A stretch of 64,000 nucleotides of DNA from Escherichia phage phAPEC8: sequence record NC_020079.1; one strand, 5' to 3'. A model generated the notes under the pieces. It was not told the origin of the DNA. It ran no database searches and saw nothing but the letters and a program-made list of their open reading frames with translations. Positions within the stretch are counted from its first letter, which is position 1. Each line of letters starts with the position of its first letter. Made by a program: the position numbers and the translations under genes. Positions 28,994 to 29,065 of this stretch are shown here, in pieces.

Positions 28994-29065
28994 TTCCCGT
29001 TAGACTTACAGGATAAGAGTTCCACAATTTATTGTGACGCTGGTTCGAATCCAGCACGGGATACA
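28994..29065 (+). ncRNA. degenerate tRNA-like element with aberrant anticodon arm
   Basis: Good T-arm GCTGG-TTCGAAT-CCAGC and 6-bp acceptor, but the anticodon arm is CACA-ATTTAT-TGTG (6-nt loop) and no CCA. Confidence 0.3.

Follow-up and report, generated by a model that had tools for sequence, protein, structure and literature searches.

The window analyzed here, a stretch of 64,000 nucleotides, comes from a phAPEC8-like coliphage of the genus Phapecoctavirus, subfamily Stephanstirmvirinae. Default ARAGORN and Rfam place 11 tRNA genes, all on the + strand, between positions 27143 and 29148, and the 2.4-kb tRNA region is 95–97% identical over its full length to that of many phAPEC8-like genomes. 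The 78-nt gap between tRNA-Ile(GAT) and tRNA-Met(CAT) is occupied by an unannotated tRNA look-alike of 70 bases on the + strand (Table 1). The label X is used here both for this element and for the family of related elements in phages. The coliphage tRNA cluster that contains X is flanked by a promoter-like site upstream of tRNA-Gly and by a strong intrinsic terminator, which the phage ASO2A record likewise lists as rho-independent. The promoter-like site is a candidate for the start of a Gly-Gln-Pro-Ile-X-Met transcript as judged by its consensus match, and the count of promoter-like matches in the tRNA region is no higher than expected by chance. The cluster also has weak or degenerate tRNA-like remnants, at 28020–28096 and 28375–28454.

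Table 1. Features of X and of its surroundings in the tRNA cluster
Feature	Coordinates	Strand	Basis
Promoter-like TTGACA-18-TATAGT (11/12), upstream of tRNA-Gly	28453–28482	+	consensus match only
tRNA-Ile(GAT), CCA-bearing, 2 nt upstream of X	28918–28991	+	ARAGORN, Rfam (72 bits)
X, entire element	28994–29063	+	
X acceptor stem, 5' strand TTCCCGT	28994–29000	+	sequence, fold
X U8-A9 linker	29001–29002	+	T and A invariant in 24/24 aligned family members
X D arm, non-canonical	29003–29022	+	alignment pairing
X D-arm outer clamp, G10-C and A11-T	29003–29004 with 29021–29022	+	
X D-arm inner helix, CTTA/TAAG	29005–29008 with 29014–29017	+	
X D loop CAGGA, including G18G19	29009–29013	+	
X D-stem bulge AGT, 3 nt	29018–29020	+	
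X anticodon-position hairpin, CACAA-TTTA-TTGTG	29023–29036	+	sequence, fold, family stem covariation
X variable region AC, 2 nt (4–5 nt in ordinary tRNAs)	29037–29038	+	family alignments
X T arm, canonical, GCTGG-TTCGAAT-CCAGC	29039–29055	+	sequence
X acceptor stem, 3' strand ACGGGAT	29056–29062	+	sequence
X discriminator A (next letters CAT, not CCA)	29063	+	sequence, alignment
tRNA-Met(CAT), 6 nt past the X discriminator	29070–29148	+	ARAGORN, Rfam (50 bits)
Intrinsic terminator AGCCTCC-TTATT-GGAGGCT and T run, end of tRNA cluster	29264–29290	+	sequence

Architecture of the element and its detection by standard tools

A first-pass annotation, made from the sequence alone, had described X as a tRNA-like element with an intact T arm and a 6-bp acceptor stem. 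Both are present in the sequence, positions 2–7 of the acceptor stem forming six pairs next to a U1×U72 mismatch. The proposal that the anticodon arm is replaced by a 4–5 bp hairpin with a 4–6 nt loop agrees with the sequence and with the fold, in which the hairpin has 5 bp and a 4-nt loop or, alternatively, 4 bp and a 6-nt loop. The same annotation had correctly pointed out that X lacks CCA and that the loop includes TTA in a non-canonical geometry. When the X strand is folded in isolation, the minimum free energy structure is the cloverleaf (−22.9 kcal/mol, z = −3.4), and none of 200 shuffled sequences is as stable. Compared with a canonical tRNA, the top half of X has the T arm, G18G19 and the discriminator A, with six acceptor pairs, U1×U72 and an unencoded CCA. 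In the core, the 8–9 linker is kept, nucleotide 26 is missing, the D stem is bulged and the variable region consists of 2 nt. The canonical anticodon loop (7 nt, U33, purine 37) is absent. With only 4 nt closing the 5-bp stem, the arm of the window copy is unable to present an anticodon.

Default ARAGORN finds the 11 flanking tRNAs and is silent on X, and the Rfam tRNA model (RF00005) gives no match on X either at the gathering score or at E ≤ 10, the neighbors of X reaching 50–72 bits with the same model. With relaxed-mode ARAGORN, which the first-pass annotation had suggested as a check, X is called only at the 80% threshold (-ps80), as a forced tRNA-Asn(att) at 28995–29062 with a poor stem, beside spurious antisense calls. 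Neither tmRNA, YrlA nor any other tRNA-like RNA in Rfam matches X at E ≤ 10. The sole Rfam overlap at this level is an antisense match to Plastid-ycf2 (16 bits, E = 8.6), a model that likewise matches the antisense strand of ordinary tRNAs. X is annotated as an RNA gene in none of the inspected Phapecoctavirus records, and a hypothetical CDS is drawn across it in the ETEC-TG record. A protein-coding reading was rejected, because 1-nt indels among isolates lie within both overlapping ORFs.

The copies of X in other phages are handled in a similar way. Default ARAGORN misses most of them, and those of Gamaleyavirus are reported as "tRNA-??? (ac)" with a 6-nt loop. The Rfam tRNA model gives 33 bits for the SonariX copy and 25 bits for the phiEB49 copy, and no score for the copies in KP8, A7_1 and the window.

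Distribution and shared structure of the X family

A sensitive blastn search with X alone yields 69 full-length Phapecoctavirus records, and X lies in the same slot, Ile-X-Met, in all 69 of these matches. The same search detects X with 75–83% identity in the Vequintavirinae coliphages A7_1, A73, W70 and UPEC06 and in the siphovirus phiEB49 (Drexlerviridae), the phiEB49 copy being annotated as tRNA-Val(AAC). Iterated searches add the N4-like Enterobacter phage SABI and a partial SonariX record without taxonomic lineage; KP8-like Klebsiella Schitoviridae, in which X is annotated as tRNA-Leu and is given as tRNA-Leu(CAG) in the KP8 paper; Gamaleyavirus (N4-like coliphages), in which X is tRNA-OTHER, tRNA-Thr or unannotated; and two Klebsiella phages, 05F01 of the Stephanstirmvirinae and NDO71 of the genus Mydovirus. 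On the evidence of these sequence matches, the family is shown to be present in at least six unrelated phage lineages of Enterobacteriaceae, with roughly 150 copies in all. Outside Phapecoctavirus there are lineages in which X stands at the beginning or the end of its cluster and has its own CCA encoded.

A covariance model, R1, built from 24 distinct copies gives its members 73–88 bits, and ordinary tRNAs in 350 kb of phage DNA reach at most 51 bits (best, 50.9). The window copy scores 84.2 bits, partly by construction because it was in the training alignment of R1, and the blastn homology is independent of the model. R1 finds exactly one copy of X in the whole window. Exact-pattern scans of IMG/VR and a metagenome collection recover only copies of the Phapecoctavirus, phiEB49, SonariX-like and KP8-like types, and the loosest exact pattern matches 49 loci, otherwise unrelated tRNAs. 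A search of 5,426 complete genomes of E. coli gives no X match. Among 100,044 species genomes there are five pattern matches, all of which score like ordinary tRNAs, and no family-level match. The sister genus Justusliebigvirus does not have X, although the downstream tRNA-Met is common to both genera, and rV5 is a further relative of X-carrying phages that does without it.

In the alignment of the 24 sequences, the cloverleaf positions are paired in 89.5–93.5% of cells, compared with 27–49% after a shift of the 3' partners by 1–3 columns. Among these distinct sequences 11–12 pairs are altered on both sides, and the covariation score of the alignment is reached by none of 500 shuffles. Compensatory changes are present in the acceptor, anticodon and T stems: acceptor pairs 2–7 covary across the family, three pairs of the anticodon stem and two pairs of the T arm are altered on both sides, and the T arm is paired in 99.2% of cells. 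The acceptor stem and the T arm, together with the inner helix of the D arm, are also obtained independently with RNAalifold.

The D arm does not follow the canonical register. Pairing of 10–13 with 22–25 accounts for 70.8% of cells, and a T-to-A polymorphism common in Phapecoctavirus breaks one of its pairs, so this register was rejected. A revised structure with a clamp, a bulge and an inner helix pairs in 93.5% of cells, and the same polymorphism is then harmless in the bulge. At the clamp pair 11–28, 14 sequences have G-C, the 10 of Phapecoctavirus have A-U, and none is unpaired; the inner helix CTTA/TAAG is invariant across the family. The common core thus consists of a D arm of the form TAG-R-CTTA..GG..TAAG that includes the clamp and the bulge, a 2-nt variable region and a GGTTCGAATCC T loop, and the window copy has this core. 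Nucleotide 26 is missing from this core, the D stem has a 3-nt bulge and the variable region is short, most lineages having 2 nt and Gamaleyavirus 3 nt. The family keeps the acceptor stem, the T arm and the GG of the D loop, from which the elbow and the 3' end of a tRNA are built. The alignment and pairing results together show that X has a normal top half on a rearranged core. We have high confidence that X belongs to a conserved structured family.

The anticodon stem is kept throughout the family, and its loop varies from 3 to 9 nt and is almost never canonical. In the alignment, the loop has 3–4 nt in Phapecoctavirus, 6 nt in Gamaleyavirus (AAACCA), 7 nt in the Vequintavirinae coliphages A7_1 and UPEC06 (self-pairing CGUAUCG or CGUCUCG), 8 nt in KP8 and NDO71 (CAGGCAUG) and 9 nt in SonariX-like phages and 05F01 (RACUUAAGA). 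The 7-nt loop of phiEB49 is the sole canonical-looking one (Y-U-NNN-R-N on a 5-bp stem). Phages of different families have the 8-nt loop in identical form and the 9-nt loop in nearly identical form, the stems beneath them differing by compensated double changes, and the flanks outside X have little or no similarity between phages sharing either loop. Two readings of the loop sequences were considered and dropped. The 9-nt loop contains a CUUAAG palindrome in the layout of the HIV dimerization loop, through which two loops might kiss, but other subtypes have no comparable palindrome, and chance alone would produce palindromes of 4 nt. An ACUUA motif as the relic of a UUA or UAA anticodon occurs in three subtypes in differing structural registers and is missing from the other three.

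Selection, erosion and alternative readings

In six Gamaleyavirus genomes the nucleotide diversity (pi) is 0.048 for X and 0.054 for the adjacent tRNA-Ile, compared with 0.35–0.43, near saturation, for the flanks. Judged from these diversities, purifying selection on X in Gamaleyavirus is as strong as on a tRNA. The loops shared between phages with dissimilar flanks, the conservation in Gamaleyavirus, the absence from the cellular genomes searched and the lack of X in Justusliebigvirus point to a phage-only gene, apparently transferred as a unit between lineages, a number of which, at the least, maintain it by selection.

The pattern in Phapecoctavirus is a mixed one. Mean identity to the window copy is approximately 96.1% for X and approximately 98.4% for both the tRNA-Ile and the tRNA-Met blocks, as averaged over the listed rows of searches of the whole phage collection with equal-length 84-nt queries, and the divergence of X is approximately 2.4 times that of the flanking tRNAs. 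In a sample of 14 sequences, which was partly picked for X diversity, 13 of the 74 columns of X are variable (17.6%), compared with 55 of 861 (6.4%) in the 11 tRNAs (p = 0.0015) and 226 of 1060 (21.3%) in the non-tRNA gaps (p = 0.56); the identity means given above are the re-estimate of these rates from the whole collection. Position 1:72 is U:U or U:C in all 10 distinct Phapecoctavirus sequences, and the tail is CAT, CCT or CCC; in most other lineages 1:72 is paired and CCA is encoded, and in the alignment a broken 1:72 pair is confined to Phapecoctavirus. Single isolates have damaging changes, namely a T-loop insertion (ESCO25), G18A (ev052) and A49×C65 (MirsaeidiM), and three isolates have 1-nt loop deletions. 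Judged from the sequences, the Phapecoctavirus X is the most eroded version of the family, with the 1:72 pair and CCA lost, the shortest loop and faster divergence. The drifting parts are the variable region, the bulge and the loop of the anticodon arm. Of the 46 paired columns 3 are variable, compared with 8 of the 25 unpaired ones (p = 0.0125). One of the three variable paired columns keeps a G·U pair, another is the already mismatched position 72, and the third contains a newly broken pair in one genome, so that beyond the fixed 1:72 mismatch only 1 of the 10 distinct sequences has a broken pair. Since the variable sites avoid the helices, the scaffold appears to be still maintained, or to have been maintained until very recently.

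These observations bear directly on the explanation that the Phapecoctavirus X is a dead pseudogene, a relic of family X or of a tRNA-Arg-like gene that persists through the youth of the genus and the selection on the flanking tRNAs. The faster divergence, a fraction of variable columns near that of the spacers, the loss of CCA and of the 1:72 pair, the loop indels together with the T-loop insertion and G18A in single isolates, and the lack of X in Justusliebigvirus all speak for this explanation, and the weak tRNA-like remnants in the cluster indicate that tRNA decay does occur there. However, the substitutions spare the helices, a compensated change has become fixed in Phapecoctavirus as the A11-T28 pair, X is kept in every one of the full-length records, and the family is clearly constrained in other lineages. 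We consider the pseudogene explanation, the main alternative, possible though doubtful. The first-pass suggestion of a decayed tRNA therefore holds for the lost CCA and 1:72 pair and the accelerated divergence of the Phapecoctavirus copy, but it does not account for a covarying family that extends across taxa rather than a one-off, for the selection in Gamaleyavirus or for the sparing of the helices.

Another explanation is that X is pure processing punctuation, its fold merely recruiting RNase P or exonucleases for the maturation of the neighboring tRNAs and the excised RNA having no role of its own. The tight spacing of X between tRNA-Ile and tRNA-Met in a polycistronic cluster and the conservation of the scaffold but not of the loop are consistent with this. 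However, both neighbors are complete tRNAs and bring the determinants for RNase P and for 3' processing themselves, X is elsewhere first or last in its cluster with its own CCA, and it passes between unrelated phages as a unit, its neighbors being left behind. We consider the punctuation explanation, the counterpart of the processing element named in the first-pass annotation, improbable.

A working decoder, that is, an ochre suppressor or a frameshifting tRNA with an abnormal 6-nt (or 8–9-nt) loop, could be suggested by the TTA in the loop of the window copy and by the ACTTA found in the loops of three subtypes, and engineered tRNAs with 8–9-nt loops are able to read 4–5-base codons. However, the Phapecoctavirus loop is TTTA, CTTA, CTA or TTT, 3–4 nt on a 5-bp stem, and TTA is therefore not conserved. 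The canonical layout on a 5-bp stem is found only in phiEB49, the discriminator is A or G within a single loop subtype, and X receives no score from the Rfam tRNA model and a poor stem at the threshold that ARAGORN needs. Because the loop varies even within the genus, a role as a suppressor or frameshifter is very unlikely, and the first-pass annotation was right not to claim a suppressor, TTA being lost in the CTA and TTT relatives and a 7-nt loop being absent. Finally, chance hairpins or a DNA-level signal without an RNA gene, for which the want of annotation in the inspected Phapecoctavirus records might speak, are effectively refuted by covariation and homology, given the fold stability (z = −3.4), the 84 bits with the family model and the compensatory changes in three helices across lineages.

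Proposed role and relation to known tRNA-like RNAs

The evidence favors, by a modest degree of belief, the hypothesis that 28994–29063 is a real gene for a non-decoding tRNA-shaped RNA, the Phapecoctavirus version of family X. That X does not decode is very probable, and the arguments for and against its being still functional in this phage are evenly balanced. X would be transcribed within the Gly-Gln-Pro-Ile-X-Met unit, and RNase P would cut at the 5' end of X and at the 5' end of tRNA-Met, the latter cut setting the 3' trailer of X. The 3' end would then be trimmed, and CCA would be added by a host enzyme. X may work through its tRNA-like body rather than by codon reading, and its likeliest role would be that of a competitor or decoy for a protein recognizing tRNA shape, such as a tRNA-targeting defense nuclease or a tRNA-processing enzyme; that it acts specifically as a decoy is rather unlikely when taken by itself. 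By the general rules of tRNA identity, aminoacylation of X is predicted to be unlikely, because G3:U70 is missing, there is no long variable arm and the discriminator is A or G within one loop subtype. A broader and speculative hypothesis, to which we give little weight, is that X is a horizontally exchanged scaffold-only mimic, by which virulent enteric phages would bind or mislead a host protein recognizing tRNA shape, with arm variants tuned to the host and the window copy active through its body. Tuning of the arm to the host is suggested by the presence of the 8-nt loop in unrelated Klebsiella phages, of the 9-nt loop in Enterobacter and Klebsiella phages and of other loop types in coliphages.

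Ordinary tRNAs of phage clusters (T4 and T5 types; RF00005) resemble X in setting, strand, spacing, the 7-position acceptor stem and the GGTTCGAATCC T arm, as well as in the G18G19 of the D loop, the discriminator and, in most X members, the encoded CCA. X differs from them in lacking a 7-nt anticodon loop and nucleotide 26 and in having a 3-nt D-stem bulge and a 2-nt variable region, and the window copy differs additionally in the missing CCA, U1×U72 and the want of an Rfam score at E ≤ 10 where its neighbors have one. The best non-members under R1 are phage tRNA-Arg(UCU/CCU) genes, namely tRNA-Arg(CCU) of phiEB49 (45.9 bits) and an apparent tRNA-Arg(UCU) (50.9 bits), the anticodon of which was read from the sequence by eye rather than called by a tool. 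These tRNA-Arg genes have the T arm and the word ACAGGATAA of the D loop in common with the phiEB49, A7_1 and window copies of X, whereas in X the anticodon stem is displaced, the loop is replaced and the core linkers are rearranged. Descent of X from tRNA-Arg is a plausible lead, as judged from the nearest-neighbor scores and the shared D-loop word.

Phage tRNAs with altered anticodon loops escape tRNA-targeting defenses (eLife 2023, PMC10264068; PARIS, PMC11464382; retron Eco7, PMC11555353), and tRNA-cleaving defenses and phage tRNA counter-measures have been described recently (PMC10264068, PMC11464382, PMC11555353, PMC12445682, PMC13056530); family X is described in none of these papers. 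The defense-escape tRNAs are like X in being phage-encoded, in lying in tRNA clusters and in differing from the host in the anticodon loop. Unlike X, they are working decoders with 7-nt loops that substitute for cleaved host tRNAs. Since X cannot decode, only a decoy or competitor action would be possible against such defenses. Phage tRNA genes are now seen partly as counter-measures to tRNA-cutting host defenses, and a conserved non-decoding tRNA-shaped RNA, if true, would be a different player in this conflict, that is, a decoy, competitor or regulator and not a replacement tRNA.

The "tRNA-Other" of Bacillus cereus, a non-translating pseudo-tRNA with a cellular effect (PMC3399842), offers a precedent for a tRNA look-alike that has a function without decoding. 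It differs from X in being bacterial and chromosomal and in its sequence and architecture. No description of family X was found in the literature searched; the family is previously unrecognized, and phage tRNA-like or pseudo-tRNA genes as a class are already known. In the records X is unseen or mislabeled as tRNA-Val, tRNA-Leu, tRNA-Thr, tRNA-OTHER or a hypothetical CDS, and such mislabeling distorts tRNA counts and codon-usage arguments for these therapeutic-candidate phages.

The stable RNA species 1 and 2 of T4 (RNA C and D), whose function is unknown, are co-transcribed with the T4 tRNAs and processed from the operon. They resemble X in being small RNAs from a phage tRNA operon, the transcript of X being a predicted one, and no sequence similarity to X was detected, T4-like phages being absent from searches with five versions of family X as queries. 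tRNA-Pyl has a short variable region and lacks G18G19 and the TΨC loop, and tRNA-Sec has a longer D stem, a small D loop and a long variable arm. Both are like X in having a compact or rearranged core. X is distinguished from tRNA-Pyl by keeping G18G19 and the TΨC loop, from tRNA-Sec by its 7/5 acceptor/T arrangement and the lack of a long variable arm, and from both by the lack of a canonical anticodon loop. Even if X were merely a slowly dying gene, it would still document a distinctive rearranged tRNA core that is tolerated in several lineages.

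A probable additional tRNA and an atypical tRNA of the cluster

The tRNA cluster probably contains a twelfth tRNA, tRNA-Ser(TGA). ARAGORN makes no call for this segment at default settings and reports tRNA-Ser(TGA) when its thresholds are lowered to 90% (-ps90), and the sole Rfam match is a sub-threshold one to tRNA-Sec (37 bits). A tRNA-Ser(TGA) is annotated by tRNAscan-SE in the record of phage ASO2A, and 4 of the 87 columns of the candidate are variable, a level of conservation equal to that of the other tRNAs of the cluster.

The tRNA-Met(CAT) downstream of X, the tRNA-shaped, non-decoding element, is 79 nt long with its anticodon at position 37, and its Rfam score of 50 bits is the lowest in the cluster. 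It is common to Justusliebigvirus and phi92 with an identity of 94-97%, and is annotated as 'tRNA-Pseudo-CAT/tRNA-OTHER' in Mt1B1_P17 and as tRNA-fMet in some Justusliebigvirus records.

Features in the window and at loci of other phages (L handles, own coordinates)
Feature	Position	Strand	Remarks
tRNA-Ser(TGA) candidate	window 27530-27619	+	ARAGORN -ps90 call; tRNAscan-SE annotation in ASO2A
Degenerate tRNA-like fold	window 28020-28096	+	between tRNA-Asn and tRNA-Thr; unannotated
Weak 'tRNA-Thr(agt)' call	window 28375-28454	+	ARAGORN -ps80 (thresholds at 80%)
tRNA-Gly/tRNA-Gln spacer, 98 nt	window 28568-28665	+	conserved; predicted hairpin
Gln-Pro spacer, about 82 nt	window 28742-28834, roughly 28748-28829	+	presence/absence among Phapecoctavirus genomes
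tRNA-Met(CAT), downstream of X	window 29070-29148	+	atypical
tRNA-Ile(AAT) adjoining X	L072 582-656; matching slot in L071, L075, L076		Gamaleyavirus
'tRNA-??? (ca)' and permuted-tmRNA match	L060 551-625 and 955-1057		Klebsiella phage KP8
Weak tRNA match	L004 442-520		Escherichia phage A7_1; Rfam 33.9 bits

A degenerate fold, a weak tRNA call and spacers

The degenerate fold 3' of tRNA-Asn, which is labelled 'Leu(caa)' by ARAGORN at -ps80, combines an acceptor of 7 bp (GGACUUG/CGAGUCC) with a T arm whose loop is 8 nt long. It scores 18 bits against the covariance model of X and is found in the matching position in related phages. The 'tRNA-Thr(agt)' call, which lies in the 316-nt gap 5' of tRNA-Gly with a promoter-like site (28453) immediately downstream, could be another tRNA remnant or a false positive.

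The Gly-Gln spacer is conserved to the same degree as the tRNAs (4/98 columns variable, pi 0.0105) and is predicted to fold into a long terminal-pairing hairpin of -24.2 kcal/mol, for which the tools used gave no explanation. The Gln-Pro spacer is a presence/absence polymorphism within the cluster: a number of Phapecoctavirus genomes carry it, and others, such as Mt1B1_P17, EF1-1 and ESCO25, cleanly lack it.

The Phapecoctavirus tRNA cluster also occurs, 95-100% identical to that of coliphages, in records titled Campylobacter phage B15, Acinetobacter phage ABPW7 and Pseudomonas phage PsgM04F (accessions among such matched records include MG065650.1, OP562383.1 and OR584014.1), and the host labels of these three look doubtful.

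Odd tRNAs in other phages

The tRNA adjacent to X in the N4-like coliphages (Gamaleyavirus) is called tRNA-Ile with the anticodon AAT, and the resulting A34 is unusual among bacterial-type tRNAs. Klebsiella phage KP8 has a second odd tRNA, 'tRNA-??? (ca)' by its ARAGORN label, with a 6-nt loop, which was ruled out as a member of the X family; the permuted-tmRNA match of this phage (33 bits, sub-threshold) lies 3' of its tRNA cluster. The A7_1 match, immediately 5' of tRNA-Met and without an ARAGORN call, may be a further degenerate tRNA-like gene within a Vequintavirinae cluster.
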